Assembly (NCBI GenBank): GCA_008632985.1
Contig: QPGO01000072.1
Span: 62,001 to 126,000 of the forward strand
Reading direction: 5' to 3'
DNA: 64,000 nt
DNA from: Psammoneis japonica
Taxonomy: Eukaryota
Shown: positions 29,764 through 59,584 of the stretch, piece after piece
Layout: each line of letters opens with the position of its first letter
Numbering within the stretch: the first letter of the stretch is position 1
Position numbers and translations under genes: made by a program
Notes under the pieces: generated by a model
Seen by the model: the letters and a program-made list of their open reading frames with translations, nothing else
Database searches by the model: none
What the model was told of the DNA's origin: nothing

Positions 29764-32700
29764 TCAAATGGAGCTGGCTGCGGTTTCAATGGCCAAACTC
29801 ACATATTCGTCCACCAAACTAAAATCACTCTGAAGTAGCTTTCCGAGTATTTCGGCACTTTCTTTGTCGTTCGTTGCACGTAGCCTTGCCTTCAACTCGT
29901 TCAAAACAAGCTGCGCGCCAGTCTTGGAATTTACTGCCAAAGTATTAATGGCGAGCCGTTTCACATCAAGAAGGTCCTTGCTGACTTTAGACGGATCTAC
30001 AAACAGGGCTCTCACAAACTCTTTCGTGATGCTACCTTCCATGTCTGCCATGTCAACTCGCATCATCTCGATGATCAGAACTAACAAATGAAACGTCACG
30101 GGTTCTGCACAAGTCCCACAACGTGTTGGCGTGAACGGAACTTCGGATTTGACGGATCCCAAGTCCAACAACGCATCATGTTGTAGCCTTACCCACGCGT
30201 CAATTCTTCGTCGAATTTCGTAGCATTCCCGCTCCGCCTCGCGCATTAGCCGGTACAGACGAGCGCACTCTTCCGACAGTTTCTTAGGCGATTGTTCTTC
30301 ATCCTTTTCCTTACCACCACCGCTATTGCCGCTCCCCCCACCACCTCCTCCTTCCCCGGCACCACCATCTTCGGCATCACCAACTCTTCCACTTTGTCCT
30401 CGAGACCGGGATTGAATACTAGCTACCAAACGACTGAGAGAATCCGAAGAGTCGAGTGGTAGGACGTCCACTCCATCAGCGCCGCTGAAGAAACCAAGCA
30501 CGTCCCCGTCCTCTTCCATATCTTCCACAAGCAGACCTGTGCTGCTAGAATTCAATAGCGTTTGGCGAAGCAACAAGTCACCACTTCTTCGATCAGAATC
30601 GCTCCCACGTAGTTGACGGGCCAAGCGAATCAAAGATCGTGCTCTGTTTGCAGACGAACCGCGACTGCCAGACGACGGACGTCGCGATGCGATTGACGCA
30701 ACGGCCGATTCTCGTACACCACTGCCGCTCCGCCCGCTTCTTCCTTCACCCCCCTTTCCGCCGGTAGAAGGTGGAGGCTTCCCAAGAAAGGCACGTTTTA
30801 GCGATGGCCCGTGCGAAGAGAGAGCCTCAAACTCTTCGAAATCTCCCCAACGAGGGCGTTTCTTCGTTCCACAAGACAAAACCTTTTCCTTCAGCTTTGA
30901 CCGGAGATCACCATGCAGTTTTGTCGCAACGCGCAAGATTTTTGTCGCTCTCGCATATGAATCCTCATCAACAACAGCCACGGCATTCGAAGCAATGCCC
31001 GCGGTAAGTTCATAGTCAAAGCCTCCGCAGGAGCAATAGCCGCATTCAACACACAAGAAGGCATCCAAACGGTCGTAATTGATATGTCGACATTTCCTGC
31101 ATTGAAAAGCAACTTCTCCACAGTTTCCGCACACTCCGTGAGCATTCGTGACAAGCCTCGTACACCTCGGACAATGGAGTACAAGCGAGCCGTCTGAGGA
31201 CCTACTCGTGCTCCCCGGCCTGTCGTGGAACTCCAAATATTCAAATTTCAAGTTTGCAGCTACAACGGGCTCAGGCAGAGTACAGGAAAAACGAGAAGCA
31301 CCGCGTGATAGAGTAAGCGTAGCGCATCGCTGCCACATGGAAGAATACTCCTCACTCTTGAGAGTGTTGACGTCGACAACTTGCCGCGGCGTGAAGTAAA
31401 CAGCAATGGTTTTGACGTATCGAGCACGTGGATCGGTTACCGTCAGGTGAATATTTGACACCGCAAGTCGGTACTTTAGCTGGACAAAGTTCGAAAAATC
31501 CGTGCTCACTGTCGCATCGGTCGATGACTCCAGGCTGCCTCGAACGAAGGGTTTGACCTGGTCGGGAAGCCACGGTGTTTCAATCGGTTGGTCGCGCGAG
31601 GTGCCGTGTTCGCAATGATCGGCGTCTTGAGACTCTTTCGGCAAAGAGTCTGACAGTGATTGTCTATGGCAATAGCTACAACATGCCAGATTGAATCGAG
31701 TCTCTGACGATTCGCCATCCGCAGTTTTCGTTTCTAGAACGACGAAGTCCTCTCCCACACCACCGCTCGAATCTTGGTATAATGTTTGCATCTGCAGAGT
31801 GAAACTTCGGATGATTTTGTTGGCAGCGCGTTGTAGCGCCTGGGATCCTTTACAGCGACGAACGAGGGTTTGGACAAAATCCAGAAATTCAACAGAACTC
31901 TCTCCTATTGCGCTGATTTCACCGAGAGGCGTATCGACCATTTTGTCCAGCAGCGAAGTCGAATCTTCCGGCGACAAATTTTCACACAGCCTCTCTGCCA
32001 CTTGACTGACCACTTTGCGAAGCTCGTGCGTTCTGCCTTTGAGGACAAACTGGACGACGAGGGCGTGAATTTCTTCAACATTTAGACCTCTTTGGCCACC
32101 AAGTATAGCGTCTTCTGGCTTAGCGTTGGTGTCGCCGTTGTAGAAAGGGTTTGTCTGTGCAATCCCAACAGTGGCAACCTCGCTTTCGAGTCCACCATCG
32201 GAACTCAACCCTTCCCCGCCGTCCTGAAAAGCATCGTCGATCCAATCGTCCGGAGGATTCAAAGCATTTTCAAGAAGCGTAAACGCTTTTATCTGATTTG
32301 AGCCCGTCAGCGAGCATGCCACCCAGAGAAGGGATACCATGGGAGGGCAAGAAGCAGTTACATTGACCTCCTGAGACGTCTCGTCCTCTGTCGATTTTAC
32401 CGAACTTTTTTGTCCTCCGGCAGAAACCACTGAGAGAAACTGTCGCCAATTTTTACATCGGCTGCGGGCTACTTCAAGTAACTCATCTAGCACCGCTGAT
32501 ATCTTCTTACTTGATTCAACAGCGACACAACCTTCGGAAAGCAAGTCTTGAGTCCCAATCAAGCCGCCAGCTCGCAGGTTCGTCCAAGCAACCCGCTCAG
32601 CTTTTTTCCAGCTAGTACCGCAGCGTCTGGCTTGCTCTTTCCTGACGATAGCTTCCTCTAAACAGCCAAGGGAGCACTTGATGAGGTTGTCATACTCAAA

Positions 32701-35700
32701 CCCAAATACGTAGTGATCCCGTACATTTTGATAAACCGCCCGTCGCATACCACAAAACCGTTTCAATGCGTTTTTGGCTAGCAAGCGAAAAGGACTCGAT
32801 GAACCAGGGCTGATGATCTGACATAACAGGGAAAACCAATTTAGAATAGATTCGTCGTTCGGGACCACTTGGGTAGAGTCCTCCGCAACGAGAGAGAACA
32901 ATTCAAGCACAGCGTCAATTGATGACCCTTCGCCTTTCGGCAACTCCACTGGTTCGCTCGAGTGTGTGTGGTCATGCGGTCCTTGTCCAGGCTTACGTCT
33001 CCGGGAAAAGGCAGGGCTATTGGAATATGACAGTTTCTCCTTGCTGCAGAAAACGCCATCTTTCAGGTCATTGTAGGCAGCCTCGCTGTCATACTCACTG
33101 TCTAATCGAGCAATTCCACCAACTTTGGCGTCGCCTGTAGATTTCACCTCCGAAGGGCGACACACTTGTGGCTCGCGCGAAACCTCGAAGCTGGAGAACT
33201 CTCTTGCTAGAAAGTCGCATAGTTGAGCGTGGAGGGGCACGGAGCCAGGCAGAAGAGGGGCGGTGAGTAACTTCCAAATGAATTGGGGCATCTCGGCCAC
33301 ATACAACATGTTTGGATCCGAAGCGTCGTCTAAGCCAGCATCATCAAGGTCTGCCCACTTGAAGTAGTTGCATCGCGACTTTCTCTCCAAACCGCAGACA
33401 TAAAACCTTCGATTTTTGTTGACACCACTGGAGCATCTACGTCTCACTGCCGGAACACCATGAGCTTCACAAACAAACCTTGGATCTGTCTTTTCTTTTG
33501 ATCTCTCTGGTACACCGACATGGCTTTCACATGGCGCGAGATTGTCAGGAAATGCGATTTTGTCAGAGATTGATGATAGATCGTTTTTCTGGCGGACAAG
33601 GCAAATAAGGCACCGCAGGCACACCACAAGATCCATTATCGTCTGCCCCGAAGCCTTGCCATGGGTCTCGCCACCGCCGCATGATCGCAACAGTTCTGAT
33701 ACTTTGGCTGCCAGTTTCTTTGCAAATCGCTTTCCTCTCTCAAGTTTTATCTCATCCAGATCAGAACTAACTATCACACCAAGGACCATCTGAAAGATGG
33801 GCACGGATTTTGTCACAGCTTCTTTACTGTTCGAGGGAAACACGACATTAAGGATTTTCGTGAAGATCATGTCGTTGAAAGTACCTCGTCGTGACAATTG
33901 AGCGTCGACCTCAACTTGTTCGTCCATTGGTAGCAGGCCTGTCTGACTATTAGAGATCCCCCCAATTGCTTGCCGAGCCTGTTCCACCTGCTCTTGGATG
34001 TTCCCCGCGATAGAAACTGGCTGCATTTGCTTTATTTGTGCGCAGGTTAGGCTCGACCCTGTCCCTAGTCTCAAGGTCCTTCCACGTATCAAAACTTCAG
34101 TTCCCGAATCATAGCCATGTAGAGACGAGATTTGATCCCCAATCTGAAAGCATTGCGCACAAAGGTCGATGTCATGACCACCTTCAAGAAGCGTGAAGCG
34201 CTTATCCGTGATAGGAAACAACGAGCAACTGTCGCATTTATATGCAATGGGGGCAGAAGATTCGTCTCTATCCACCGGGGTTGGCGAGTTACGGCGGTGC
34301 AACGCTTCGTCGTCAGTACGTGCTTCCCGCAAGAAAGACAACATCGACGTGCAGGCGCTTTCCACTACTGTCAAATCGTCATCTTGCAGTAGCCTCGATA
34401 GGATCTCAAAATCAGCGAATCCCTCGGTGCTATCACCTCCCGACTTCCACGGCACTGACATTTCGGCAAGTATCAGTTTGACCAGGCATGGAACAACAAC
34501 CCTGCAATCCACGAAAGAATTTCTTCCGCTTTCCACCAGCTTCCACGCATTTATCGCCAGAGATAAGGAGGACGGGTCATCGGTAAATATCTTTAGGATT
34601 GACCGCAAATATATTTGAGGATGCTGCGTCGCAATTCTGGTGCCAATAGTACAGCAGTCAGTCAGCACAGTTTCTACTTGCGACCATGCATCAGCGAGGG
34701 GCGAACGAGCTTCCGAATCGCTTGAACCGACGTGTTCATCGGTAGATAATTTGGATTCGAAAGCTACTTGAGCACGATTCAAAGCCCGCGACAAGCCGAA
34801 AATTATGTTCTCGTCCAAAAAAACTTGGCGCCTGCCTGGGTCGTCTTCAACAGCTTCAAACAGACCCACCACGCCATCCCAGACATCTCGGTTCTCCTTG
34901 GAAGTCGTTGCCGTAGCGTGAATTATTCGACTCAATGTCTTTTTGCATGCCACAATGTCGGAATCATCTTTTTCAAGGAAGTTGCATGCATTTGTTGCAG
35001 CGGCGATACTCAGAACTAGAGCTCGCTGAGCATCTGGCTGTTTCATCTCGATTCCTAAGTTCTCCTTTGTCTGCTGAACCACTTTTTCGTTTTCAGATTC
35101 CAGTCCTTTCGGGAGCCATGAATCAATATACTTCCTCTCCGTCACGTACACTTCTACAGCATCAACTATCGGACTATTCCCGCTCTCGGACGAGCGGCCA
35201 ATACCAAGCGACACAAATCCGTTCCGAATCGACAGCGCCACCTCCTCGTGCGATAGAGGTAGGTCGTACCAACGCTTGGACTCGGCCTTCAGCTCAACTA
35301 TTCGACCCTCGACCATCAATTTTCTGGGAATAAAATCAGATCTCTTCGACCCAACCAGCACCCTGAGCGCAACAATTGCGTAGCGTTCTTGGTCCACGAC
35401 TTCCGATTCATGCGTTTCCCGGGGAATATGCTGTCCGAAACTGCACTCGGCTTCGTGATTTCGCAGGCGGCGGGGGAGTGAGATTGTGATTGTGCATCCC
35501 TCCTGTGAAGGCGCCATAAAAAATGCGCTGCTCTTAGTGGATAGCTTAGATTTTACCCCTCGAGAGTCAGAACCAACCCCGTCCGTACTGAAAGACAGTT
35601 CGTCCCAGTCGCTTGCATTGATCAATTTTTCGAAGACGGTCAAAGGAAAGCACGGCTTTGCATCCTGAGAAAGCGGGGCGCTGCTCGGTTGGTTAGAATC

Positions 35701-38700
35701 CCTCGCCACTCCTTCGGCGAAAATGAGCATTGCTCCATTCGATGTGACAGCAACGAGGAACGCGCGTTCGCACCAGGGTGTGTCGCCACAAAATTTTGTT
35801 AAATCGCAGGCGTCGCTCGAGATGAGAGGAGCAGTGAATGCCGCCACACCTTCAAAACACTCAGAAAGACTTAGACCAAGCCCCATTGAAACCCCTGAAG
35901 GCCAAGACAAATGCTTGACTTTGGAAGTTCTTTCGTTGTACTGAATACACAGGACTTTGGGTTGACCGGTTGTAGATGACTGCCCGACGCAAGCCACTCG
36001 AAAGTACATATCGCCGTCTTCCATCACTACACCTAGCTCTGTCCAATGGGCGAACGGGCCCTTGATAGCAAAACCACCCGCCCCTGTTCCAAGCATTTCG
36101 GATGATACAACGTTCGGCAACATTTCAAAACTTCCAGAAATCCTACCATCCGAGTCAAATACTAAAGCCAGCACACAAGATGACAAGCAACTATAGAGCA
36201 ACAATCCACTTTGAGACAGATAGACCAGCCCGCATGTGGAGCCTTCACCGAGGCTGCGAACAGCTGACGGCGCATCAGACGGAGTGGTTAAACCAACTCC
36301 AGCAACGGGAATAGAGACGCTGTCTTCATAATCCAGATATCGCTCTCCCTCATCTTCTAAATCCCCCCGACTATCAGCTTTGACATCTACCACATGAGTG
36401 CGACCGGAGTCAAGGAGCAGGAAGAGCTTGACAAAGGTTTCCTTTCGAAGCTCCATTGCATCAGAAGCTTCTTCGCTGGTCCGATGGACCGGCACAAGTG
36501 CTATGTCTCGTATCATCGCTTCGAATGCTAGATTGTAACAAATCACCGGCAGCAAGCGTGCATCGTTCTCCGCTCTTTGAACAGAAAATATTTTTACGAA
36601 AGGGCCGCATGCAACGGCTAACAACGTTTGCGATCCTGGCAGCCATTCGCATTTCAGCAAGTAGTCAGACTCGCATTCTTCAGGCTCCAAATCAAAGATG
36701 AGTTCATAAGTCTTCTCAACTCGATTGCACATCGAATTCAATACCACTATGCAGGCCTCAGCAGTACCCCACACGGCAAGATGGCGCTCATTTTCCCCAC
36801 AGAGTTGCATCCCGACGATATTGAATTTTAAAGGAGACGAGCCCAAAATGCACAACTCGGCTCTGCGTTCAAAAGGAGCGTTGCAGGGTTCTTTGATGTG
36901 TCGCACATTGACAGCTGGTAAACCACTGCAGAATAGAAGGGAGCATGGTTCAGCGATAATCAGCCTTCCTCGGCTGTCTGCTGCAATTGCCCGTCGTTTG
37001 ATTTGATTTCTTGACAGCATCGATCTCTTGAGTTGATTTGTTGTGGAGTCCGCGGAAAGTGCCATCTTCAGCGAATTCGACTTCGCCGCCCTGACAATCA
37101 ACAAATAATGAACAAATACTGGAAACCGTTAGAAGCAAGAGGCGTAAATTGGGAGATGTCGCGAAGACAACTTACCTCAGTGGTAGCATCGCAGTGGCTT
37201 CAAGGGATTGCAGTTCCAGAGCCTGTCCTCGTCGGGCGGCGATAGATCTTCTCAAGGATTCAAAGATATCTTCTGAGCTACGAGCTCCCGAGGCGAGATT
37301 AGCATTCCTACCAACAGGTGGTCCAGAAGTTTCGAATGCGCAGGCATTGTATTGATGAAGAATCAAGCCAAAGAGGGACTTGATCCACGACGACTCGATG
37401 GAGGCTTCTTTCAGATCCGCAATTGACGATTCTGCCTCGCTTCTGAACGATTGGCAAATAAGTTCTAGCCAACGAGGCTCGATCGTTCTACTTTCGCTCG
37501 AGGACGATGGTTTCGGATTCTCCATTTTTATCTCGGGGCTTGCCAATTCGTAAATATTGCGCTCCGACGGCGCCGAAGGACCCAAGGCGTCAGACGAAAC
37601 AGGTGTCATACATTTGCACGAGATGCGGTCTCCCTCGTCCTCGGAAGGACAGTCGCAGTAAAAATTACTGAAATTCAAGGTAAGATAGTACATGTGAAAG
37701 CAGAAGTGAAGAGAGCACCATAGAACTCACCTATGGCGCGAATAGCCGACATCATGCCCATTATGACAAACTCTTGCGCAAACTGAACAGCAACCACGGT
37801 CCCATACAAGTCCGCAAGTGTAGCAATTATACCAGTGTTGATCTTGGAAACCCTTGTCGCGCACATATGAACACACCAGAGCGCCACTCCCGGTTTGTGT
37901 GGTCTTCGAGAAAGTCTTGGCGTTGCTCGTGCCCTTCGTCCCCGGATCTACAAGAACGACACCATCTTCGGGCATTCGTTGGAGCGCCTCGACAACTTCA
38001 ACGACAAACCGGAAGAAACGTTCGAGCGAATGAAGGTCGGGACCAGATGTCGAGTGTATATCAGGGGGGTCTGAAACCAATTTCGAGCCGACGTCTTTCA
38101 GACGACCTATACGCGTTCCCAGCAGGAATAGGAGGTCCAAAACATGATTGACGGGTTGATCGCCGCAACACAACTTGTCGATTCCATCGAGAAGGATCGA
38201 AAACACACGCTGGGTGATGTTTCTGCATCTGTCGCCCGGTCGGGCAAATATAAAACACAACATGTGACTGATCATTTTGCTTTTCTCAATATTTGCTTTG
38301 GATTCGGAAGCAGTCGTCGATTTTGACGGTATCAAACAAATATCTTCCAGTAAGACTATAGAGAGTCGAGCATCATCGAGTCTTTCGAAAACAGAAGCCA
38401 TGGAGTCTGCTAGCTCGGTTATGCCAAGACATGACAGTCCCGAGAGCGTGCGAGCCAAACAAGCGTTCGCGTCAGAATTCAATTTCGCCTGGTCATGGAA
38501 CAGCAGCGACACCATTTCCGTTATCGCTCGTCGCCGCGTTGCTTCAGATCGCCACTCAAGAACAAGAAGCTTGCATTCGAGAGGTAAAGGCGTTTTGAGG
38601 AATGTCCCAGTACACTCCACTGAACCAACGATACACTTTAGCAGGAGACCAGTCGGGTAACCGAGGAAACCGGCTGTTTTCAGGTACCCGTCCTCAACCT

Positions 38701-41700
38701 TCAGACTTTCTTCGCCTCCGGTAGGTGACGAGGACAATAAAAGAGCACCGCTTTTCTCGTCAAAGACATCTTCCACTCGGTTTGCTTCGATTGCTTGGAT
38801 TAGACCTTCGAGAATAATATTCGAAGCAGTTACATCCTGCTGTGCCATCTTTTTCGCAGTCAACATGTCCCCAATCACAATCATAGAGGACACGGCAGTG
38901 CGTAGGAACTGCATATGCTCCAAATCCATCATGAGCTCTGAATCAATTGATAGATTTGCTGCCACCGCATAGCAAGTCAGTGTACAGTCATTGCTGCGAA
39001 GACTCGTTGATGACATTGCTGGTAAAAGAGACAAAAATCGCCAAACGGACGCCTTAGTGCTGTCCGCAACAGAGGAAGCGACTTTCAAATCTTCGACAAA
39101 TCGAAGTGGTTTTATATAATCAACTACTCCGTCGTCGTCTGTTTCAAGTTGATTAAGAGCGTGACGACCGCGCCCAACTGCTCCACTCAATCCAAAGCGC
39201 AAAAGAGCTGCCGCCGGCATGGCGTTTGACACAGTTGTTTCGTACACTCGCCTCCAGCGTTCGGCGCCCAACATAAAGTCATTTGTCTCCTTATTTGAAG
39301 GATTGTGCAGCAAGTTTTCTGATTTCAGTTCGAGAGAAGATCCAAGAAGCGCGACCGACAGTAGTAACTCCCACTCCCCAGCAGCACGGAGCTCGCCTAG
39401 AGTTGGCTCCCAATCATCAAAAGTAATGGTTCGAGTTCCGAACATTCCGTTTATTCTTTGCACCGAATTGGGACACCAAGCACCCAATGCAAATGCTTTG
39501 CTATCCCTGGAAGGAACACCAAGCACACCTTTCAACACCTCCTTGTCCACTTTACAGATCCGAGAGATCACGTTCACATAGTCCGGAAAAAGTTTCAGTA
39601 CCAACTCTTCGGGTTTCTTCCGGATCATAAAACACAGCTGAAGTGCAAGCGCAGATCGTCGATCCGCGTCTGGACCATGTTTGACACTAGACTTTATGCC
39701 TTCGAACCAGCATTGCACGTAGCGAGTGTGTGCGTACTGAGCTAACTTGTTGTAGCATGTAATAGCCCTCTCCGCCACAGCTACAGTCTCGCTTGCATTC
39801 ATTCCGCTGCGAATCTCGCAGCTCGTATCTAGCCAATCAGGATGCAATGGAGCCGCACCAAATGCGAGGGAAGCTTCATGAAGTCGGTTGATTCCGTCCA
39901 TTCTTGCGTCCTCGTCAGACTCAGAATCATTCTCGGAATCGCATTTGTCGTCATAAGAATCCATGTCTCTGGCGTTGCTTCGCTTCAGTGGTTTACGACC
40001 CTGTGTGCTCTGGAAGAAGGAGTCGTTACCCGCTGTAGTGTACTGTGACACAATAAAGGCGACATAGACCGACAGGGCCTCAAATAGCGCGAAACCACCC
40101 AAGGAAAGAGAATCAAGTTCCTCGCTAACAAGAGCCTCGACCAATGCATCCGCCTTATCCATCATGGTCTTCAGCGTGTGTTTAATCTGAAATGTCGAAG
40201 CCTTTTTTCCTTTGTCGCGTTTCCTCAAAACACTCGAGAGCAGGGAATGAGAGGTGGCGCTGTCGTCACCATGGATTTCGCGGTTGGCACGACACATGTC
40301 GTCCCGCAGCTCAATGAGAAGCTCAGGTGCAACACCAGAAACTGAATCTGAGCGGGTTTTTTTAATCGTGAGTTTAGCGGTGTCCCATGCGCTGGCCTTA
40401 CCCGATGCATTCCAAGCTGCAAATAGAAGGTGGCATTTATCATTGGGCGCCGACGACATTCCAAGCTCGAGCGACGCTCGAAAGATCAAAGTCAATTTCT
40501 TTTTCAAATCGCCATCTAACGGCTTTGCCCGGTCCGGAAGGCTAACCTCTGGAATCAACGGTGACTCCCAATATAAGAAAAGTCCCATGAAGCATTGTTC
40601 GCTAGTGTACCAATCGTCATTAGGGTGCAAAGTTCCTCCCACGTCGTTGCGCGTTGAGATTGTCGGAAGACTATAGTGGCTCTGACCGACATGCCTAAAC
40701 AGAGAATCCCGGAGGCTTGGCGCAACATAAACAGTGTGAACAACCGTCACAGAAACAGTTATAAGTCGAGCAAGAAACCTTGAAACTGCGCTTGTACTGC
40801 AAAGTAGAGTCCTGTGCGGTTCGTTTGAATCAAGGGAAGACAGGCAAGCGAAAAGCATATTGACGAGATTCGACAAGCACGTTTCTTGTTCCTTCACTGG
40901 GAGGCGACAAAGTGCCGTCACGAAAAGCATTGAATCTCGAAGAGACAGTGGCACGCATCCACTTGGTAGAGCTCTTCCATTACCATACGGAAAAGTCCAT
41001 TCTGCAATGATGGTGAGGTCCTGAAGCGCCATCTCGATTGAAGTCAGATATGCGTTAACGATGAAGCGCTCTGGTGACGCGTCATCGCCATCTTTCAAAG
41101 GTTCACTCGCGAGATTAGAGGATACCAAGGCATGATGGATCGCTGGAAGGAAGAGAGGCCAGCTGTCTCTTCCTTCTTTCCCCCCGGATGCACTATCATC
41201 AATGGCAGCCACGGCGCGGAAAACAGCAAGGCGAGTAGACGAATCTCCAAGTATCGGGCCATTCGTGGCTTCGCGCCGTTGGGAGTCGTATGATGTTGTC
41301 TCCCGTCCGAGAACTATGCAAAGGTTGGTATGAGCAGTCCTACATCCACCAGCAACGAAATATTGGTAAACAGGGCAGACGTAACGTCGAAAGAATGCAA
41401 GGACGCAGAGCAACCTACCATAAAATCCTTTCGGCGTGGGTAAACCCCCCACCGCTAGAGCCACCGAAAACAAAGGGGCCCTTCTTTGTCCCATCACTTC
41501 TGGTCTGAATGCGAGTTCGTACCAACGTCTGGTCAAGCATTACTCCGAGTTGGACAAAGTCACACATGTGATGACACTTAAAGGATCCACGCAACGAAAT
41601 GCGAAGAGGGGACCGAGCGGACGCATGTGGCTGTGGCTGAAAACACATTCGAATCACATTCAAGACATCCGCCGCGAGTGCCGAGCGGGTTGAATTGATA

Positions 41701-43905
41701 TCTCTGCAACACCAAAGAGAAAGAATAACAGTGAGGCTTATGTATCCAAGCGACAATCTCTGATCACTATTCGCCTAGACTCACTTTTTCATGGGAGTAG
41801 ACGCCGATTCTTCCGTGTCAGCAACCGCTTGAGCTGTCGCGTCCTCCTTGCTCGTTCCCACCTTTCGCCGCTTGCTCTTGGTGGCGGGCGATTTCTTGCG
41901 CTTGCCACGTTTCTTGGGTGCTTCTTTGGGTGGCTCGCTAACGGTTTCTTCTAGAGGTGTATCGTAACAACAGCGAACAATACCCAGCAGTCTTGAAAAC
42001 AAATTCTCTGCAGCAGGCCCATCACTCGCGACGGCACGAAGATACAAGGACAATAGTTCATCCGGGGACACTGATCTTTGATCCTTGGCGCCTCGCGATG
42101 ATTCACTAAAGACTCCACCAAAGGTACACGCGTCGTTGTGCGTGGCTCCCTTCTTTTTACGACCACCAGCTCTTGTCTTTGCCGGCATGGTTGGCACTGG
42201 CAAATCGACGTCCAGATGAAACTGCTTCGTCAGATCTTCTGAATCGCCTCCTCCTCCTGCTGCTGCTTGGCTACTGCTTCTACTTGAGGATGCGGCATCT
42301 TCTTCTGCATTTAGTGAATTGCGAAGACATTCTTGTAAATTCACGATACCAAACGAGATCAGCTTGGAATCCACCACTTGGTTCGTGCCACCCACCAAGC
42401 AACAGGCAGAGGCAAACCCCAAGAGTCGACGGACCGAATCGGACACGTCGACACTGGCAGACTTCACGACACTCGATGCCGCCGCACGGCACAACGAATC
42501 GAGTGCCTTGTTGCAAAAGGGGTAGAATCGTGCCATTTTGACATTTTCTGCGGTAGTAACGACGGAACGTGAGTCTTGGTCTCCCACCAACTGTTCTTCC
42601 TTGCAGTGTTCTTGTACACACGTCGTGTGTGCCTGAATGAGCCAATACGACGCGACAGTAGCAGCATCACGAATATCGGGCCGTTCCCATGCATGCTTTT
42701 TCGCCGCAGGCTTGCTGCGCTTGGAAGAAGGCAAGAGCGTGGCTGCGTATGCATCCAAACCACACGTTGGGGCTCGGACACCACAGGCATTGCCACTTTC
42801 CGACAAGACATCCAAAAATCTCGATACCAACGCCACGAGGGCAACATTGCCCGGAACTTGCACCATGGTCGGTGCGGCCGCTGCGGCGGCGGCGGTCGTG
42901 CGTTTCTTGCCACGGCCTGGACTGCTGGTCACCTTGGGAGTAGGAGCTTGCGCGGCTGGACAGTCTAGCACGTCTGCCCAATGCTCGACGTTGGATAGCA
43001 TTTGAATCACTCCCTCTAAAAGCACTTCTTGTCCACGACACAGCCATACAAAAGCCATGGACGCCCATCGACGGATCGAGACACGACCCTCCATGACGAT
43101 TGCATTGGCTTCGTGTAATTGTTCCAATTCCTGAAACCGCTGTACCAACAAGGCCGCACCCTTTTTGGTGGCCTTTTTTGGCGCCAGCGCCGCAAGACAC
43201 GCGTCTTCTGCTTGTTTGAAAACCGCCGTCGAAATGGCAGCACACGCGTCCGCAATGTCTTGTTCATGAGGCTCGTCTTGAACAAGACGTCCCTGTGCTG
43301 CCGCCGTCCACGACTCGTCTCCGGAATGAGACTTGGGCGGTGTCGAGTTGGACAAGTGCACCACGGCCTCGAGAGATTGTAAACACGCCCAGAGTGCGTG
43401 GCGTCGCAAGGGAGAATCATCATTCTTGGATTCCACAATACCCGTCAGAGCCGTGGTGGATCCAATCGTGACGGCGCAAATGGCTCGGCCCGCAACGCTC
43501 CGAGCCACCTTGCTGTTCGCAGCAGCGTGGGCGCATTTTTCCAACTTGACTCTGTCGCTAAGCAGAATGAGAGAAAGATATCGACATGTGATTGCCAAGA
43601 CGCAAGCGTCCTTTTGGAGGACCGTCAATCGGTGAATCACGTGCGTGGCTAGCAAAATCCAGTATCCATCTGCTGCGATATCATTGTCAATCAAGGACTG
43701 AAGAGCTTCGGAACAACGCTTGGGGTTCTTGGATAAAGACAAAAGCTCTTGTACAAGCGTCACGAGACTGCGCGGCTTTTTCTTTTTGGGAGAAGCCGCG
43801 GCGCTGCATCAAAAACGAAACGTGTAAGAACATACCGATGAAACGTGAACAGAAGCAGCAGCAGCACGTTTCCACTTACTCTCCGCGCTTGCGTTTCGGT
43901 GCCAT
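29764..43905 (-). CDS. UBR4: UBR4/BIG/p600 N-terminal part, ~4585 aa (exons 43905-43880, 43803-41785, 41703-41419, 41339-37731, 37667-37176, 37090-29764)
   Basis: UBR box CSYVRDKGFQDQHWYNCYTCGL...[27 protein letters not shown] (across an intron); WD-like region; DOC-like RWYDLPL; ZZ finger CDSCSLFPITDKRF..DIDLCAQCF; GRF-like CEAHG...NKNRRFYVC...CNYFKW; Cys-rich [33 protein letters not shown]...FLCVECGYC. Five GT-AG introns give a 13758-nt in-frame CDS ending in TGA. Confidence 0.88.
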
Positions 43906-44551
43906 TGTCACTGGCGCTTACAGTATGATGAATTAATCAATCAGTTCACTGTCTATCAACTCTGTCGAATACTAGAGAGTGTCGGTGTTGAAAATGATGG
44001 CTGTCGCACTCGGCATGGTCTGTGTCGCGAGGAGCCTTGATAGCTTTTCACGAAATATTCCGCGCGTGGATTTCCCCTGCGAGCAAAATCAAAATCGCGC
44101 ATCAGGAGGATTTTCTCGCGCACGTTTGCGCGGTTATTAGACTGTGTAGGCGTGCGTACGTGTGTGAGGTGTAAGTAGAATATACGTAGAATTACTACTG
44201 AGTGAGTTGACATGCGGTGGATTTTCCGCTGGTACACAATCTACGTGGTCTACTTGGAAGATAAATTTATGTTTATCTCCGATGCTTTTACATATCATTA
44301 AAATTTCTTTTTTCTTTAAAATATATATACCGCAATTCAAAAATCTTACAGAACACCCCGAAAGAACTCTGGAATCTGGATAAAAAAAAATTCTATTTAA
44401 TGGTGCGAACAGGGTTGTCGCGAAGCGCTTCTCAAAATAACTTCAGATTGGATATAGTGAAACATCTACTATTACCAAAACACAGTGACTATCGGATAAA
44501 TAGATCCCGTGTTCTTCGCGCGCAAACAACACGATAACGCACAACAACACC

Positions 44552-44878: not shown

Positions 44879-44929
44879 GTATTTGCCAAAAAATTCAAAA
44901 ATGAAGTTTCTCCCGATCGCTTTTTCTCT

Positions 44930-45330: not shown

Positions 45331-45477
45331 CGCAGCGCTATTGCCTACTAAATATTGAAGGGATGCAGTATTCGGAAGAGGAAGCAAATAACGATATCCT
45401 TTCACTTTTTTTCACAACGGGGACAACAATCTCCTCACAAAATTGTGTCTGCGGCAGCTGTCAAGATCCCTTGCAAG

Positions 45478-47141: not shown

Positions 47142-47795
47142 CTAGTCCATTTCATCCAGAATCGCTGTGAGTATGACCATGAGGACTTGATCCGTTCCTG
47201 GATTGATCTTGAGTATCGAGGAATTGTGCGTTCCACGTTTGATGTAATTGCACTGACGGCCTTTTCTGTACACATACGAGGTAAAGTCATTGTCTCGTCG
47301 CGTCGCGTAGGTTGGTTTTTCGTCTGGTTGCTGGTTATCCAACATGACGGTGACGGTAGTCGAACTAACTTTCTCATAGACCTTGGCGTATAGGTACAGA
47401 ACTATGCCTCCCTCGTATTTAAGTGTAGATTCTTGGCCTTCATAGAGTGGCACGGGTGTGTAAATTTTGAATTTATCCTTGGCCGAAAGGACATCGTTAC
47501 GAATCATGAGCGCCACAAGGTTTCCACTTGCATCCTTCATGTCCATTTGATCGCCTTTTAGAATTCCACGCTTGCCTTTGATTGTTAAACCATAAAAACT
47601 GCTTTGATCGCAATATTTCAGGATATAACTGTTTCCTCCTTTTCCTTGAAAGGATTGTTTATACATGACAACTTCGGAAACTGAATCGGTCGATATCTTT
47701 GCACCTTGCTTGGCGCCAATCACCGGAATGTTGGGATCCACTGGATGGACATATTCGAAGACTTCTTCCACCGGACGAGAATCAGCGCAGCCCAT
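47142..47795 (-). CDS. Tubby-C/LURP-one-like protein with an MGC N-terminus (possible lipidation)
   Basis: 217-aa ORF; MKDASGNLVALM, FKIYTPVP and a C-terminal INPGTDQVLMVILTAILDEM helix typical of this fold. Confidence 0.65.
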   Translation of the reverse strand: MGCADSRPVEEVFEYVHPVDPNIPVIGAKQGAKISTDSVSEVVMYKQSFQGKGGNSYILKYCDQSSFYGLTIKGKRGILKGDQMDMKDASGNLVALMIRNDVLSAKDKFKIYTPVPLYEGQESTLKYEGGIVLYLYAKVYEKVSSTTVTVMLDNQQPDEKPTYATRRDNDFTSYVYRKGRQCNYIKRGTHNSSILKINPGTDQVLMVILTAILDEMD

Positions 47796-48130
47796 TTCTT
47801 ACCTCAGTAGAAGGTAAGAGGACTGTTGCAAGTGAGATTGTTCTTGTCGCCGTCGACTTCTCGACTTCATCCAACGTTTGGTTTACGGTCAAAAAAAAGT
47901 TCCGTGCGCCCAAGTTCAAAAGTTGGGAAGTTGAAGTGCCGGCGCGGAATCAAAAGTGCGCGAAACGCGCGGAAATTTTTTGAAATTGAGTGAGCGAGGC
48001 ATGCAACGTTGGTCCGCGCTGAGGTGGCGGGAACATCATGATCAACAACTGCATCACGAATCATCACAAGAACATCACCTCGATAACTCATTCATAATTT
48101 CCATTCATCTCTTCAAAAGAATAACCATCC

Positions 48131-49651: not shown

Positions 49652-49963
49652 GGAGACATTAAAAATTGAGTCACAACTAAAGAAATCAACTTAATTCTAT
49701 GGAGTTTCTGCGTCGTAGTTTCGCACTGCCATGGACTTTGTTGGTGGGATCTACCAATGGCTAGAAGCCACATAGGATGGTCTATCCGTCCGATTGCCCC
49801 CTATTGACCCGCGGTTTGGATGATTTGTCCGATTCAGGCACACACACTGAAGCCGCTATCGACTAGAGTCAAGAGGCAGTTTGCACCGTTTAGTGTCTAT
49901 GCCTCTGAGTGCAGTGCCTCTGCTCGGGTCAATCATGGCTCATTCTGCTGTAGCAAAAATCAG

Positions 49964-52459: not shown

Positions 52460-52759
52460 GGTAGAAAGAACCAGCTTTTGAAACAACAATGCCTTGCGTT
52501 GACCTGTCTCAGTTATCAATTCACCACCCTGGGCAGGGTTCTGTGGAGGTAGGGCCCTAGAGAAAATACGAATAGATTTACAAAGAAAGCTGGAGCTGCC
52601 TGTCGTCCACTTTGGATGTTTTTGTGAGCAAGAAGTGATGGCTCCTTGCTCTTGCCTTTACTAGCCGTTGAACGCTCTTTTCGCTCGCGAAAAACGCATC
52701 CAACGCACGACCCCAACGGACAATCGTTAATTGTAGCCTAAATTGCATTTATTTTTTTG

Positions 52760-53755
52760 TAAAACTTCAAGGCAAATCAGTACATTCAGACATGAAGATT
52801 TTGTAAACGCAAGCCGTGACCGTTTTTCCAAGATTGATGCTTCTTGAAGTTGAGAGACAGTGGCTGGTCTGTGGCCGGCACCCCCTTGTGTGAGCGCGGG
52901 GGTGCTGGACCTGTGTGCGGGGCCAAGCTCTGCTCTTTTGCACAATTGTTTGACAGCACACCCCATTGTACAAGCCAAAAAATGAGTTTCATTGTGGCTG
53001 TTTCTGAAAACAGAGTTGGGCTGAGATGTTTGAAAAAGGTGCCTTTGAGCAAACACTCTCTGGAGATGACTCGCACACTTCAAGCAGTCATGACAGGGGG
53101 GGCACGCCACTTCTCAAGTCAGTTGGAAAATTGCATTTTTCTGTGAGAGGCTGCCAGCTTGTTTGTTGCCCAAGAAACAGCTCTTTTGCTGCAGAGCTTG
53201 GCGCGCACTGCATTTTGCAGGCTGAACATTGCACGTGCTGTTGCATGTGGGGGGCTGGAGCACATGGTCACTTTTGTGGTTTTTGCCAGCTGCTGGTTGT
53301 TGCTGCTTGGGCACAGCGTGCCAGAGCGTGAGCTGGGGGGGTGTCGCGGGCACCTCCTTGGCATGACTGTTGGGTGCCCAACTTGCTGTTGTTGCGTGCA
53401 GGATGTCTTGGACTCCATTGTGCAAGAAGGGAAGTTGTGTGGGCAGGGCGGGGGACAACAAGCTGGCGGAGACTGGCTTTTCAGAGCAACAACCCAGCCA
53501 AACACTCTTTGATGTTCCCACAAACAATCATGGAGAGTTTTGCACATTGTGGCACTGACCATGTCTTTGTGCAGTGCAAAACATGTTTGGCAGACATCAG
53601 CCAGCAGAACCAGAGCTGGTCTTGTTGTGAAAACAAAAAAGGCTCCTCTCCACACTCCACACAGTGTTACTCCACAGCTCTTTGCTGCGAAAGTGGGTGA
53701 AGTGTGAACAACAACAATGACTTCCAGACAGAATTTGGCTTTCCAAAAAGTTGTT

Positions 53756-53795
<40 letters not shown>

Positions 53796-53950
53796 GCCCA
53801 TTGGGGCATCACGACCAGATGGCTGTGAGAGCTGTTGTGACAAAAAATGAGACACACCCTTCCACGAATTGAACTTGCGGGCGCTGGCCAGACGACGGGG
53901 TCTGGAGGTCTTGCGTGATGCGATGATTCGCGTGATTGATTGAGTGCATG
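52760..53950. mobile_element. Unidentified TpA-depleted repeat relic directly upstream of the UBR4 C-terminal gene
   Basis: No TA between 52971 and 53667, with CA/TG excess; no intact ORF or recognisable domain. Confidence 0.45.
53757..53794. repeat. (CT)n microsatellite
   Basis: About 19 CT units. Confidence 0.95.
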
Positions 53951-53956
53951 TGATGA

Positions 53957-53964
53957 TGACGTCA
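53957..53964. promoter_or_regulatory. CRE-like TGACGTCA palindrome ~110 bp upstream of the UBR4-C ATG
   Basis: Perfect palindrome followed by a CA-rich leader and ACCATGG. Confidence 0.35.
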
Positions 53965-54075
53965 TGTGTCAATAAGTAAACACACGCGCGTAGCCATCAT
54001 ACTGACCCCTACGTGACACAGAATTTGGGAGAGACACACAAAAAACTCACAACGAGCGACGCACAACACTACACC

Positions 54076-57000
54076 ATGGACGCTTCCGTCTCCTTGTTGC
54101 CCCTCATGGAGGGCCTTTATCACAAGCAAGCCGCGGCACAAGCTATTTGTAACGATGCATACGAGCGTCACATGGCGGCGACACGAATTGCATCGTGGGC
54201 GGGACGACAATGGCGGGGTCGTTCGATACCGCAACGAGGTGGCAACGCCCGCAAGCGACGCAAAGTAGTAGTGAAAAAGACAAGAGCAGCAAAACGCAAC
54301 ACTACGACGCTCGTGTCTACTGTTTCTAAAACACAGTCGTCGCCAAGTTGGCAGCATTGGATCTTTCAAGCACTCCGTTCGGATTCGAAACGAGTCCGAC
54401 AAGTGTCTTATGCGATTCTTCTGCGGTGTATGCGTCCGCGTCTCGGACACGTGTTGTTGGATCAAGCCAATTTTATGCTGACGGAGCCACCGCTTGCTCT
54501 AGAAGGCAACGATTACGGAATACAGCTTGTGGTCATGTTGACTCACTTGCAAGTACAAGAGCCGACCGATTTGGTAGCGTTTTGTGCCTCGGGAGGCCTC
54601 CGATGGATCTCGAGCTCGATTCTCAAGCTTGCGGCCGAGCTTGTTCCTACCGTTCAAGCGGCTTGTACCACTACCAATCAAACACAAGAATTCATGACTC
54701 TACCACATGGAAGTTTGGTGACGATTCAAGCACGAATCATTCTGCTGGTGGATTTGTGTTATCGACTGGTGCTTTACGCTTCGGCTCCGAGCAAGCAGAA
54801 CAACAAGAGTTCTGAAAAGAAAGAAGCCACTACTACTACTACTACGGAATCATCATCTCCGTCCAAACGAAAACGCAGCAAGAGTCAAGACGAAACCATG
54901 GACGAAGCTCAAAAGGAAGCTTTGAACCAGAGGGTCGTGGCGTTGCGAAAAGTGCACAATGTGCTATGGACCTCTCAGCTCCCCGCCGTCACGTGGAATG
55001 ACGCGTCCTTGACTCCGCTGGCGTGTCTGATTTGTGTCCACGAAGTACTCAAGGCCAATGTCTTTGCCAGAAGTACCGGTATGGACAAGTGTTTGAGCAT
55101 GCTGAATCGTTTGGTCGATCCCAAAACACAAGTCATTGTCACGTACAAGGACGACACAAATGGGAAGAACAAGAAGAGGGACAAGCGCAAGAAACCGAAA
55201 TTGCGCCGTCGAACCGCAGCACCGTCCTTTATGTTTGGATCGGATAGCAGCAATGAGAGATCGACGTCTGCCGCGGCGGAAATGGCTCGGGCCGTGTCGG
55301 ATGCCATGGATCTCATGGACAATGATAACAATGAGAGTAGTCAAGAAACGAATGATGTTGTTATGCAAGACGTGGATGAAAACAACAATGATGAGGATGA
55401 AGAGTGGGGGGCGGTAGGCTTTCGCAAAGAAAAAGAAGACGACGACGAGGATGACAATGACGAGGAGTTGGAGGGACTTGACGACGACGAAGAGGAGGAG
55501 GAGGAGGAGGACGCGATTGATAGCGACGAATGCGATGAGTGCGAAGAGGAGGCTGAAGATGAAGCGGAACAAAAGGAGGATGAGGAGCAGGATTTGGAAA
55601 ATGCCGACGAAGAAGAGGAAGAAGATTTGACCCAGGAGACGGACGACGGGATGTTTGAAACGTCATCGCCGCTGGAGCAAGCCGACAAGAGCGAATTGGC
55701 GCTTGAAAAAGAGTCTCAGAGAAAGCACGCATACGTGGATGCTTGTATGCAAGTACTAGCGGCACACTACCCGCACAGTAGTCACAATGCTGTTTCTGGC
55801 GGAGCACCCGTGTCGGAGCCGTCTGGATCGAGCCGAGGCATGAAGCGAATGCTGACGAACGCTGCCGAGCAGTCGTTGCTCAAGTCTGTCTGTGACGTTG
55901 TTAAGCCTCCTCGCAGGCGTGTCAATTTCAAGATTTACATGAAGCGTGCTCCGACGCAGGAGGAATTTTTCCGCGGGTCTATTTCACGCAATCCAATGTC
56001 CTTTTCTTCTCTGGCCAAGCACGGAGCTCAAGGGGAAGGCGCCTCCGGACACGAACCCACAGTTCGCGATTTGCGTCAACACATTGCCAATGACCTGCAA
56101 ATGTCTGACAGCGCAGAGTTGCTGGAACTTTTGGTCGCCAACAAGATTCTCGACATGAATCTGAAGCTACGGGTGGTTCATCAGGTATTGTGGAAGAACC
56201 ATCTCATTGAAGATCCCTCTTCGTCCTTTGCGTCATCGTTGCTGTCGGGTCACTCTGGGCACACGTTTTTGACATCTGGAACAAGCATATCCGTGGTATT
56301 GAATGCAACAATGGGTCGAGATGGTAGTGGAGGTCGTCGAAGTGTCACGGCAGATACACCTGCGTCCGCGCTTCCTCCAATGGTGGTTACCTATCGCTTG
56401 GCCGGTGTCGATGGTGAAGCAACAGAGGATCACGTGGACGAAGCGAATCTGGTTGATCCGGAGCCCCATCGCCTATGGAGTCCGCGGAAGCAAAAGAGCT
56501 GAAATGGAGAAGGAGTATGGCATCACTCGACTCGTTGTAAAAGGACGAGGTATCAACCTGCTGCTCCGATCCGTTGAAGCTAACATTATGGATGTTCTTC
56601 GTCGGATTCGAAGAGACGATGCTGTGGCACAGCGAGCGGCGGCAGGAAGAAATCCTGTTCGTGACAAGTTTCTACATTCAGCACCGAGTACTGGGCTGAT
56701 GCTGCTCTCTCATTGTTCAAAACTCTCTCATAATCGGAAGAAACTGCTGGAAGCGCGTGCACCAACTCTTTTACTCCGCTTGTTGCTTGACGTGCTCAGC
56801 GCGTTGGAAGGACCGTCTGAAGCTTGTGCCGCTACGGTATCCGATGGGGTATCAAACGCTAAATCGCACACTGTGAGTAACCCAACGGCAGATGCTCTCA
56901 AGGAACTAATTGAAATGCTTTCTTCGGACATATCTCCAAGCACACTCTTGAGTTCTACAAGCGCCTGCGCCGACGACGATCTTGGACTGGAGGAGCAAGA

Positions 57001-59584
57001 TGCGAGCACTCTTCCGTTGCTTCTATCTTCGCTCAAGACAACCTATCTGAGCCCTCCGTTACGCAAGGTTATTGGGAAGCTTCTGCCTTTCTTGACTTAT
57101 GGGCAAGTGAGTTTGTCAAGAGACCTCGCTCAACATATTGCGGAACAACTGACCGTCGAGAACCTCCTTGCATTCATCATGGACGAAGCGTCGTCAAGCC
57201 AGTCTTCTGTCATGATGGACACTTTGATACAAGCAACCATCCATCTACCTCCTAGTGACATCTGTAGCTCGCTTCGTACGGAGTTGCTGGATTGTGGCTT
57301 TGTGGAGCGGCTATGTTCGTTTTGTATCAAGGACATTCCTTCGCAGCCCCCTCCGTGGTCTCCGGCGTTGTGGTCAAAGGAGCAGTCAAGCGATCTTTCT
57401 AAGCGCTCCGAGCAACGAAAATCACTCGAAGATAAATGGCGTGCTTATTTTGATCGCATTGGTCTCCAAATAGGGTTCAAAATGCTAACAGGTTTGTGTT
57501 CTTGCCACGAGGCTACACAGATTCTAATTAGCTCAGCTGCTGTATGCACACCTGACAAGAGCGAAAACGGCGAGACATCGTTATTGGCCGCTTGTCATTG
57601 GATCGAAAGTACCTCCGACAACTCCGCTTCAAAAGTAAATATGAACGGCATGGGTATTCTGGCGGAGACGCTTCTTGATGAGCTCAAGGATGGCAACAAA
57701 AGTGTCAGCGAAAAAGTCTCTAATCTGAGAAGCATGAGCCGAGAACGAAAGAAAGAAATCGCAACGGAGCGGCGCAGCAGGGCGTTGGTCAGTATGAACT
57801 CGTTTGGCGCAGGCGGTGCAGTTGGCGTAGCCTCGAGTGCACGGGCGGAGTCAGATCGAAGTTCCACCGGAGGCGTCATGGATGTTGCTTCCTCGATTTT
57901 GGCACCGGTGCTTGGATTTTTCCAGAGTAGCAGCTCTGCGGAAGGTGAGAATGTCCCAACTTCTGCTTCACAGGCTGGCGCATCGGAAACGGGAGCCGCC
58001 AGAACTGGACCAGCTCGTGAAGAAAACAAGCCCAAGGTACCAAAACCAGCATGGCTTGCGGAAATGGAAGCAATGGAAGACGAAACCGGTTTGACATGTG
58101 CGGTATGTCAGGAAGGGCGAAAATTGCAACCTACAGAGCTGCTTGGTCTATATACTTTTGTAAAAAAAGTTTCACCGCCAAGCCAGTCAGGAGGACCGGC
58201 ACAAATTGACGGAAGTATGCTTCTTTCTTCGTTGCCCTTGAAGTTGCCTTCTTCGTTGCGAGGAACTCACGTGGATCACGAGTATTTCACGCCAGCCAAA
58301 GAAGTTGCGAGATCATTGAGGACCAGTCGGTACTCCAGCGCGTCGTCAATGTCGCAAAGCAAGCGCCCGAATCATTTTGTCACCACGGTCTCCGCAGGAA
58401 ACGCTATTCACTGTACCTGCCACGCCAGGGCGCGATCTGCGGATCGCAATCACCCCAAGGCTCCAAAAAGTACGTGCTTCCCATAGAGCAAGTTTCTTCG
58501 TGTTTCCCGTTGCCGCCTTACCCAATGTACTTGTTTTTCTTTGAAACTAGGTGAGTGGGAAGGGGCGGCGCTTCGAAATTCTCGAGTTTCATGCAATGCA
58601 ATCATGCCACTTGTATCGTCAAAGAGTTCAAAGGTGCATCTTGCGGCCGTGGAGATTGCATTGACAGATTATCAAACTGTAATCTCGAACTTGCTTGGCA
58701 GCAGGCCAAAATCGATGCTGTGGACGATACTTCATGACATACGCTTCCTATTGCTGAGAATGGCGTACGGAGAAGCATTGAATACGGACTGCGGAGGCGG
58801 ATCGTTGTCTTCAAATTCTATGCTGCTGTTTCATGAAATGTTCATGGTAGATATGTTTGCTAATGACGCAGAACACGATTCTCCCGAAACAGCTCAGCAT
58901 GCGCGTTTCCTTAGTGGTGGGTTTATCGCGGCATACGAAATCGTGAATGCGGAAGACTTTGATAAAGGTGGATCATCTACCGCGTCTTCGCTTGCGCGAA
59001 ATATCGCAGATGCAGCGCCGATGGCCGCGCTTTGTTGCGTCTTATTCAACAATGACAAAGATGACGATGCGACGGTTCCTGGAAAGGAGCGCCGATGGGA
59101 AATGCACAAGGAAAAGTTTCTCTGTGGACTTATCAGTTGTGCGGGTCGTCGTCATGCATTGGGCATTGATGAAAGTGGATGCCTAGCCTCCCGTGGCTCG
59201 AGGCCTGCCACAAGAATGCGTTCTAGCTCCTTTGCTGACTGGGACGTGATGGAAACTGAGGAATCGCCGAAGGATCCATCATTATCATCAAGCAAGAGGA
59301 AACCAAAGTCGGTTCTCGGTAAACGCGGTCTCCCGGAAATAGATGATTTCGCAGCGGCTCTCCGTCCATTCATAACTTTTTACGCGGTGATTGACCAGTT
59401 GTCGGATGTGTTCAAGGTTGAGATGGATGACGACGCAGTTGAAGAAGGGTGTACACGACTTGTCGCGATGGTAGAAAGCTGTCAGAGATCGAAAAGTATT
59501 CATGAGCTCCTGCAGAAAGCAAAGGTGACTCTTGACCACGAACGGATTATTGAAGAATTGCAAAAGGGAATCGTTTCGGCGTAA
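54076..59584 (+). CDS. UBR4: UBR4/BIG C-terminal part, ~1800 aa (UBL-like region, hemiRING and downstream domain); intron 58470-58550; apparent frameshift at ~56463-56503
   Basis: QEEFFRGSISRNP...PTVRDLRQHIA...LELLVANKILDMNL...PPMVVTYRLAGVDGEATED; GLTCAVCQEG...LGLYTF...TTVSAGNAIHCTCHARARSADR; spliced PKSEWEGAALRNSRVSCNAIMP; TDCGGGSLSSN. Confidence 0.87.

Follow-up and report, generated by a model that had tools for sequence, protein, structure and literature searches.

Two divergently transcribed genes for the halves of a UBR4/BIG ubiquitin ligase in the diatom Psammoneis japonica

Introduction

UBR4 is a 1.3-MDa quality-control ubiquitin ligase, the architecture of which was solved in 2024-2025 as a single-chain dimer. 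In a stretch of 64,000 nucleotides from the diatom Psammoneis japonica (contig QPGO01000072.1, positions 62,001 to 126,000; the whole stretch is referred to as the window, and positions are counted from its first letter) the domains of UBR4 and of its Arabidopsis equivalent BIG are distributed over two genes. These genes, an N-part on the minus strand and a C-part on the plus strand, are arranged head-to-head at a distance of 10.2 kb. The locus thus raises the question whether diatoms make UBR4/BIG as two separate polypeptides and, if they do, whether these polypeptides still operate as one enzyme.

The first part of the question can be answered with near certainty, as the structure, transcripts and conservation of the two genes point to a fission of the UBR4/BIG gene itself. 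The second part is approached by locating the cut within the known UBR4 structures, and by weighing a reassembled ligase against two independent products.

Gene structure and domain organization of the two halves

The N-part gene (29764..43905, minus strand) starts with an ATG at 43905 and ends with a TGA at 29764-29766. Four long open reading frames (ORFs) on the minus strand, spanning 43808-29764, together hold the N-part domains. The gene is built from the exons 43905-43880, 43803-41785, 41703-41419, 41339-37731, 37667-37176 and 37090-29764, which join to a coding sequence (CDS) of 13,758 nt, encoding 4,585 residues plus the TGA, and the spliced translation contains no internal stop. The introns at 43879-43804, 41784-41704 and 41418-41340 follow from joints in contigs of a spliced sequencing run (X2, see below), and those at 37730-37668 and 37175-37091 were read from their GT..AG ends and from the frame of homologues.

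The first recognizable module of the N-part is the UBR box (37640..37882, minus strand), which is split by the 63-nt intron 37730-37668. It is matched by phmmer to BIG residues 1562-1611 (E 4e-12) and to the chains 8j9r and 8j9q of human UBR4 UBR-box crystals (E 1e-10); its Pfam zf-UBR score of 19 bits lies under the cut-off of 25.2 because the intron interrupts the ORF of the box. A propeller segment matches BIG 1747-1913. The ZZ-like zinc-finger region (34135..34251, minus strand) is recognized by its cysteine pattern and aligns weakly with the ZZ domain of BIG (residues 2579-2629, domain independent E-value (i-E) 3.5). Its columns C965, D966, C968, C990 and C993 are invariant in alignment A2 (6,723 columns), and Pfam ZZ was not reported for the N-part protein of the window at E <= 0.01. 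The GRF zinc finger (PF06839; 33349..33474, minus strand; E 1.7e-8, 34.9 bits versus a cut-off of 25.9) is an N-part insertion that has no counterpart in the human and Arabidopsis UBR4 matches and is found in the fused non-diatom proteins P0135 and P0250. The second beta-sandwich (BS2, or DOC2) with its zinc fingers (31000..31554, minus strand) was identified by phmmer with BIG 3322-3500 (domain E 1.7e-28) and human UBR4 3557-3730, and by Foldseek with 9d9z (E 8e-20). The terminal armadillo-like helical repeats (29767..30288, minus strand) reach the conserved C-terminus of the N-part.

The C-part gene (54076..59584, plus strand) consists of the exons 54076-58469 and 58551-59584, separated by an intron at 58470-58550. 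Its start lies in an ACCATGG at 54073-54079, with the ATG at 54076. The gene model is based on ORFs, Pfam, tblastn with homologues and X2 contigs; counting two 1-nt insertions that are seen in reads, the CDS comprises 5,430 nt and the protein ~1,809 residues. The Pfam family PF13764 (E3_UbLigase_R4) is present in all three plus-strand ORFs of the C-part (53980-59584), with E-values of 6e-12, 1e-43 and 7e-20 and scores of 44.9, 150 and 71.3 bits versus a cut-off of 23.

At its N-terminal side the C-part, all of whose features lie on the plus strand, contains the armadillo repeats of the C head (54076..55155), which are equivalent to human UBR4 ~4005-4300, the scaffold after the cut. These are followed by an acidic low-complexity linker (55327..55686) with a predicted local distance difference test score (pLDDT) below 50 at residues 418-537, and by the pre-UBL and UBL-like regions (55876..56445), where PF13764 begins and phmmer finds BIG 4121-4232 and 4237-4266. 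The hemiRING segment (58019..58216) matches residues 88-152 of 8b5w (phmmer, E 7e-13) and human UBR4 4812-4877. The UZI and C-terminal region (58553..59581) matches 8b5w 179-277 (phmmer, 1.4e-8) and human UBR4 4903-4999, and covers profile positions 546-785 of PF13764. Membership of UBR4/BIG was judged by the UBR box, by BS2 with the scaffold armadillo repeats, and by PF13764, UBL, hemiRING and UZI, all of which are present in the pair.

Aligned to human UBR4 and BIG, both halves match in module order. The original prediction, made from the sequence of the window, had given the N-part its own TGA at 29764 and the C-part its own ACCATGG at 54076, with a UBL-like region and a hemiRING in the latter, and all of this is confirmed. 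It had also listed UBR-box, ZZ, GRF-like and cysteine-rich regions for the N-part; the UBR box, the GRF finger and the zinc fingers stand, and the ZZ assignment is reduced to a weak alignment. Its division into a substrate-binding and a catalytic half is broadly correct, except that the C-part also includes ~300 residues of scaffold armadillo repeats (human 4005-4300).

Separate transcripts

Two public sequencing runs cover the window. Run X1 behaves as DNA, and run X2 was flagged 'DNA?'. The X2 contigs skip positions 41340-41418, 41704-41784, ~43802-43879 and 58470-58550, and each of these joints shows GT..AG-type ends when read on the coding strand, which identifies the X2 contigs as spliced transcripts. 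The X2 contig of the N-part (record 9) measures 13,868 nt, against 13,758 nt for the predicted CDS, and with the additional 110 nt it fits an N-part messenger RNA (mRNA) alone. It extends to ~44015, giving a 5' untranslated part at 43906..44015 (minus strand), where it should be noted that contig ends such as this one are not exact transcript starts. The X2 contigs of the C-part run from 54062, 14 nt 5' of the ATG, to 59602, and there is no X2 cover at all at 49876-54061. In addition, MMETSP transcripts annotated as 'type:complete' are available for each half (P0123, 4539 residues; P0012, 1631 residues). Each half has its own promoter region, start, stop and mRNA.

Conservation of the split among diatoms

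A scan with the N-part against 1.84 billion representatives returned 585 matches, 150 of them listed, and 163 proteins were examined. The tail end of the N-part was found in 89 of these proteins; every one of the 89 stops 1-34 residues beyond it, and none contains C-part domains. Among 15 long relatives (4,401-4,975 residues), 14 lack PF13764, and all 14 share the tail '..SAEILGK.L..DF.L...(Y/F)..LA'. The corresponding search with the C-part for longer relatives (1,274-3,635 residues, 120 proteins listed) yielded 118 diatom-type proteins, all of which carry PF13764 and none of which holds BS2, the N tail or N-part domains. They include proteins of Seminavis, Cyclotella cryptica, Fistulifera, Epithemia, Conticribra, Thalassiosira, Leptocylindrus and Odontella, as well as MMETSP transcripts.

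The conserved C head, characterized by 'LP.LEGL' and, ~90 residues later, 'HW.F..L.S.S..VRQ', is present in 79 of 121 scanned proteins, a set made up of the 118 diatom-type proteins and of P0119, P0120 and P0283, three non-diatom rows that are not separated in this count. In 68 of the 79 the head lies within ~60 residues of the first residue, and in the other 11 it lies 145-801 residues into the chain. Centric and pennate diatoms thus share the point where the N-part stops and the region in which the C-part starts. Four diatoms, namely Seminavis, Cyclotella cryptica, Thalassiosira profunda and Epithemia, have named entries for both halves. The proposal of the original prediction, a gene fission whose products are expressed separately, is borne out by the conserved stop and start, the complete MMETSP ORFs and the separate X2 contigs.

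Chains in which BS2 and C-part domains are fused make up 8 of the 163 proteins, including one of the cryptophyte Hanusia (P0120). A ninth fused chain, P0283 of Aureococcus anophagefferens, has 5,058 residues with BS2 at 2814-3005 and UBL at 3735-3858. As far as the sequences indicate, fused chains occur only among more distant relatives, outside the diatoms. A quick tree built from the C-part core joins the split forms in one clade apart from the fused forms (Shimodaira-Hasegawa-like approximate likelihood-ratio test (SH-aLRT) support 97, 32 rows), and the window is placed among the pennates (98). On the basis of these comparisons, the split is older than the divergence of centric and pennate diatoms, and UBR4/BIG is predicted to exist as two polypeptides in a whole major algal lineage.

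In Thalassiosirales-type C-parts the conserved head is preceded by additional UBA-like domains at the N-terminus (PF22566, PF14555). UBA-like domains were found on the C-parts P0047, P0065, P0066, P0069, P0077, P0080, P0087, P0100, P0107, P0117 and P0118, and the 11 heads that lie 145-801 residues into the chain are partly situated behind such domains.

Position of the cut in the UBR4 scaffold

AlphaFold2 models were made of the N tail, with alignment A3, and of the C head, with alignment A1. The N-tail model shows BS2, the strands of which are residues 15-200, a long helix, a disordered Gly/Ser/Arg-rich stretch and the terminal helices 432-604, which have block pLDDT values of mostly 75-92 with a dip below 50 at residues 471-482. 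In the C-head model residues 1-360 form armadillo-type helices; the median of their block pLDDT is ~83, and values below 50 occur at 52-88 and 247-269.

Superposition with VIA-align relates the N tail, from residue 13 to 605, to human UBR4 3541..4001 (9nwe_A, Z 16.1) and to BIG 3349..3789 (9qt9_A, Z 14.9). The C head (residues 1..610) is related to BIG 3791..4151 (Z 15.5, root-mean-square deviation (rmsd) 3.1 Å over 227 residues), to human UBR4 4005/4007..4342 (Z 13.3-14.9) and to the Caenorhabditis elegans protein 3119..3383 (Z 14.0). The six top rows for the C head are all UBR4, and unrelated armadillo proteins reach Z values of at most 11.1. Other methods are less informative here. By sequence, ~400 residues after BS2 remain unaligned to BIG or human UBR4, and the first 600 residues of the C head are unmapped, since phmmer and the A1 profile reach BIG only from residue 4121 on. 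Weak profile matches of the C head to the fused protein P0135 (i-E 0.015 and 8.9e-4) are collinear with the structural mapping. Foldseek alone relates the C head to UBR4 chains with E-values of 0.12-0.17, and a protein-atlas search gave top scores of 0.75-0.80, to unrelated IQ and USP clusters and below the usable level.

In both references the last residue of the N-part maps within 2-6 residues of the first residue of the C-part; the cut is seamless and lies within the scaffold. According to the models, the cut appears to be located at human UBR4 4001|4005 and BIG 3789|3791, between two armadillo helices, and nothing appears to be lost; the expectation of the original prediction that little was lost at the split agrees with this result. 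In the same models the cut adjoins the C-terminal dimer interface, just after BS2, and precedes by ~300 residues the hinge (human Gly4301) to the catalytic arm. A preprint on UBR4 describes its C-terminal interface as armadillo repeats that also take a helix of KCMF1 in trans (bioRxiv 10.1101/2024.12.18.629163).

Gene arrangement in other diatoms

A metagenome scan provided 62 loci, 12 of which also hold N-part sequence. Fused forms of low identity account for seven of these (L051, L053, L055-L059); in them BS2 is located 2.8-3.5 kb upstream of UBL on the same strand. The other five (L034, L035, L038, L046 and L020) are diatom-type linked loci. In L034 and L035 the two genes are head-to-head with 576 bp between the ATGs (8535-9111 of L034, a Pseudo-nitzschia-like contig). 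L038 is likewise head-to-head, with the genes close to each other, and in L046 the head-to-head genes are ~5.8 kb apart. L020, a non-pennate diatom-type contig, has a tandem order in which the N-part precedes the C-part; a VKOR gene and, on the opposite strand, an amine-oxidase (phytoene-desaturase-like) gene separate the two (6204-9900). The C-part of L020 is a single ORF of 1,911 codons without introns. In the quick tree L034 and L046 belong to the pennate clade together with the window, and L020 and L038 fall outside it. In Epithemia the halves have consecutive locus tags on one contig of 2.7 Mb.

The 576-bp intergenic region of L034 and L035 is a candidate bidirectional promoter.

Most simply, the gene would have been split where it stood, and several lineages would have kept the halves linked. 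The tandem pair could then have become a head-to-head pair through a local inversion, followed by later insertions, and linkage would have been lost elsewhere. In the window no inverted repeats were found that bound a possible inversion (best pairs 18-28 nt, 76-89%).

One ligase or two independent proteins

The best explanation as a whole, which is considered probable, is an ancient fission into two genes, with the C-part docking on the N-part and rebuilding an N2C2 ligase. The fission would have taken place in the diatom lineage after its separation from relatives like the pelagophyte Aureococcus, which has the single chain. The N-part carries the ring scaffold and the substrate-facing modules, and the C-part supplies an armadillo scaffold 'anchor', the acidic linker, UBL and the hemiRING-UZI module for ubiquitin transfer. 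At the C-terminal dimer interface the anchor repeats of the C-part may stack on those that end the N-part, and an N2C2 assembly would in this way restore the ring shape of the ligase. In the head-to-head lineages a shared bidirectional promoter region could help to balance the subunits. Taken by itself, the assembly of the halves into one ligase is somewhat more likely than not.

A stronger form of this explanation, in which diatom UBR4 would be an obligate N2C2 hetero-tetramer with the transfer arm as a detachable subunit, docked by ~300 armadillo residues, is suggested tentatively. If it is true, dosage, turnover and accessories of the arm would be tunable apart from the substrate-binding ring, because the arm is a separate gene product. 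The UBA-like domains in Thalassiosirales would then represent one such tunable accessory, and the balance of the subunits would be maintained by an ancestral head-to-head pair sharing a bidirectional promoter of ~0.6 kb.

Alternatively, the fission is real and the products work apart, the N-part as a scaffold or receptor without ligase activity and the C-part as a free-standing E3/E4 enzyme with UBL and hemiRING-UZI, which in Thalassiosirales would find ubiquitin chains via its added UBA-like domains. This is consistent with the presence of PF22566 and PF14555 on several C-parts, with the 11 of 79 heads that are displaced from the N-terminus and with the lack of linkage in some diatoms, and the isolated human E3 module is reported to be active with UBE2A (PMC10873205). 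Against it, the cut lies inside the scaffold, ~300 residues before the natural hinge, as a result of which armadillo repeats that adjoin each other in solved UBR4 are exposed at the end of the one product and at the beginning of the other. Moreover, both halves are kept in all four species where both can be found by name, and a head-to-head pair with only 576 bp between its ATGs exists. Independent action of the two products is, in view of this, rather unlikely.

Several observations weigh against a reassembled ligase of ancient origin. The UBA-like domains on the C-parts of Thalassiosirales could point to some independent activity. Binding of the halves to each other is inferred; a complex prediction of N-tail residues 425-605 with C-head residues 1-360, run without alignments and with the fold of the partners uncertain, scored 0.00 and speaks neither for nor against it. 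The VIA-align ranges that define the cut are the first and last aligned residues only, and the N-tail superpositions have rmsd values of 10.8-14.7 Å, which are large because the model holds several domains. The halves of T. profunda are located on different contigs, and the loci L005-L007 and L044 contain no N-part, though 7-10 kb upstream of the match is present; a shared promoter is consequently not general, since the halves are unlinked in some lineages. The tree of the C-part core is a quick version with long branches. One of the protein searches was limited to at most 5,000 residues, and a fused diatom protein of ~6,400 residues could escape it; fragments of such a protein would be expected among the 89 tail-bearing proteins, and none is there. 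Finally, a further full-length copy could exist elsewhere in this genome, as the direct evidence covers the window.

The remaining point on this side concerns two 1-nt frame breaks in the C-part as assembled (56462..56504, plus strand), which had been missed in the original prediction and are a correction to it. A homologue-guided reading follows frame 1 to 56463, then frame 0 ('APSPMESAEAKEL'), and frame 2 from 56504. An X1 contig has an additional G after 56462, and an additional T after 56504 is present in minority contigs (X1 40.4/134.9, X2 11.8/57.6). The main contigs of X1 and X2 both stop at 56504, and among the indel rows listed the window-identical X2 contig is without the extra G at 56462 (0 of depth 25.4). 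The breaks may be consensus errors or may belong to one damaged allele.

These frame breaks, together with the possibility that X1 and X2 derive from the sample used for the assembly of the window, could be taken to indicate an assembly artefact in the form of a false inversion, or decaying pseudogene halves with an intact single-chain gene elsewhere. However, the region from 29.7 to 59.6 kb is gap-free, given that the sole run of N in the window is at 61038-61088. The same stop and start occur in dozens of independent assemblies and transcriptomes, other contigs are also head-to-head, and spliced contigs cover both halves. The ~1,000 codons of the C-part 3' of the breaks are still open and conserved, and frame-restoring letters are seen in reads at both sites. 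Such an artefact or decay is very improbable.

Production of one protein through trans-splicing, or from the two mRNAs joined together, already ranked as less likely in the original prediction, is hardly credible: nothing was found in its support, a rare chimera being possible since contigs drop rare forms, whereas the N-part stop and the initiator region of the C-part are conserved, the MMETSP ORFs are complete per half, the X2 contig of the N-part fits its own mRNA alone, that of the C-part begins 14 nt before the ATG, and the T. profunda halves reside on different contigs.

Region between the two genes

The window is eukaryotic, with a G+C fraction of ~0.49, and its best protein matches are all from diatoms. 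Between the halves the original prediction had counted at least four genes, in accordance with the five sizeable ORFs found at 45620-53655, which are unrelated to the UBR4 halves. The first (45620-46486, plus strand) encodes a long (SKGGSSGSS)n run behind three Cys-rich repeats, has no Pfam match and is partly covered by X2. It is followed by an ORF at 47142-47795 (minus strand) and by a FAD_binding_3 protein at 48131-49651 (plus strand). The ORF at 49964-52519, or to 52657 (minus strand), combines a JmjC-like segment, at 23.5 bits slightly below the cut-off, with Sulfotransfer_2 and is without X2 cover. The last ORF is at 53119-53655 (minus strand). X2 contigs cover parts of 46.1-46.7 kb and 48.8-49.7 kb.

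The TGACGTCA palindrome to which the original prediction drew attention upstream of the C-part is present at 53957-53964, 112 nt 5' of the ATG. It is not enriched, with 2 occurrences in the window versus 1.61 expected and at least 2 in 47 of 100 shuffles, and since this count is not above chance the motif alone carries no weight. A (CT)n microsatellite is located at 53758-53795, ~280 nt 5' of the C-part ATG. Directly upstream of the N-part gene, at 44170-45437, lies a repeat that is present in high copy number in X1: the summed X1 contig depth there is 1,066-6,215 versus ~59 elsewhere, and short contigs and joints are numerous.

Comparison with known UBR4/BIG systems

No literature on a split UBR4/BIG in diatoms or on fission of a UBR4 gene was found in a search that left most subscription journals outside, and the database names of both halves ('Auxin transport protein BIG', 'BIG/UBR4', 'hypothetical protein') hide the split, so that its recognition corrects diatom annotation. 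The diatom pair shows where the UBR4 scaffold tolerates a break, next to the C-terminal dimer interface and upstream of the hinge, and it points to a natural way of producing the enzyme as two pieces of manageable size. It also offers a testable case for the modularisation of a giant E3 ligase, and the conserved divergent gene pair is a candidate for a bidirectional promoter.

The single-chain UBR4/BIG structures, i.e., those of the human UBR4-KCMF1-calmodulin complex 'SIFI' (9d9z, 9nwe, 9hxw, 9qws) and of the Arabidopsis BIG-DI19-calmodulin core (9qt9), have the same module order as the diatom pair: UBR box, propeller, ZZ region, BS2 with zinc fingers, armadillo scaffold, UBL and hemiRING-UZI. 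Unlike these proteins, which are one chain of ~5,000 residues, the diatom ligase is encoded by two genes and two mRNAs, with a summed length of ~6,394 residues. The diatom N-part in addition has the GRF finger, and long acidic and Gly/Ser/Arg-rich inserts are found in the diatom proteins.

In sequence, the animal and plant proteins are more distant than the fused algal UBR4 chains of Aureococcus (JL722_1923, P0283) and Hanusia phi (P0120), and P0135 and P0250, the last two of which also possess the GRF finger and a ZZ domain. In the fused algal proteins BS2 and UBL are part of one chain, 700-1,100 residues apart, and there is no cut. The isolated human UBR4 E3 module (8b5w/8btl; PMC10873205) corresponds directly to the C-part of the window (E 7e-13 and 1.4e-8). 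Compared with this module, however, the diatom C-part is far larger, as it also contains UBL and ~360 residues of scaffold repeats.

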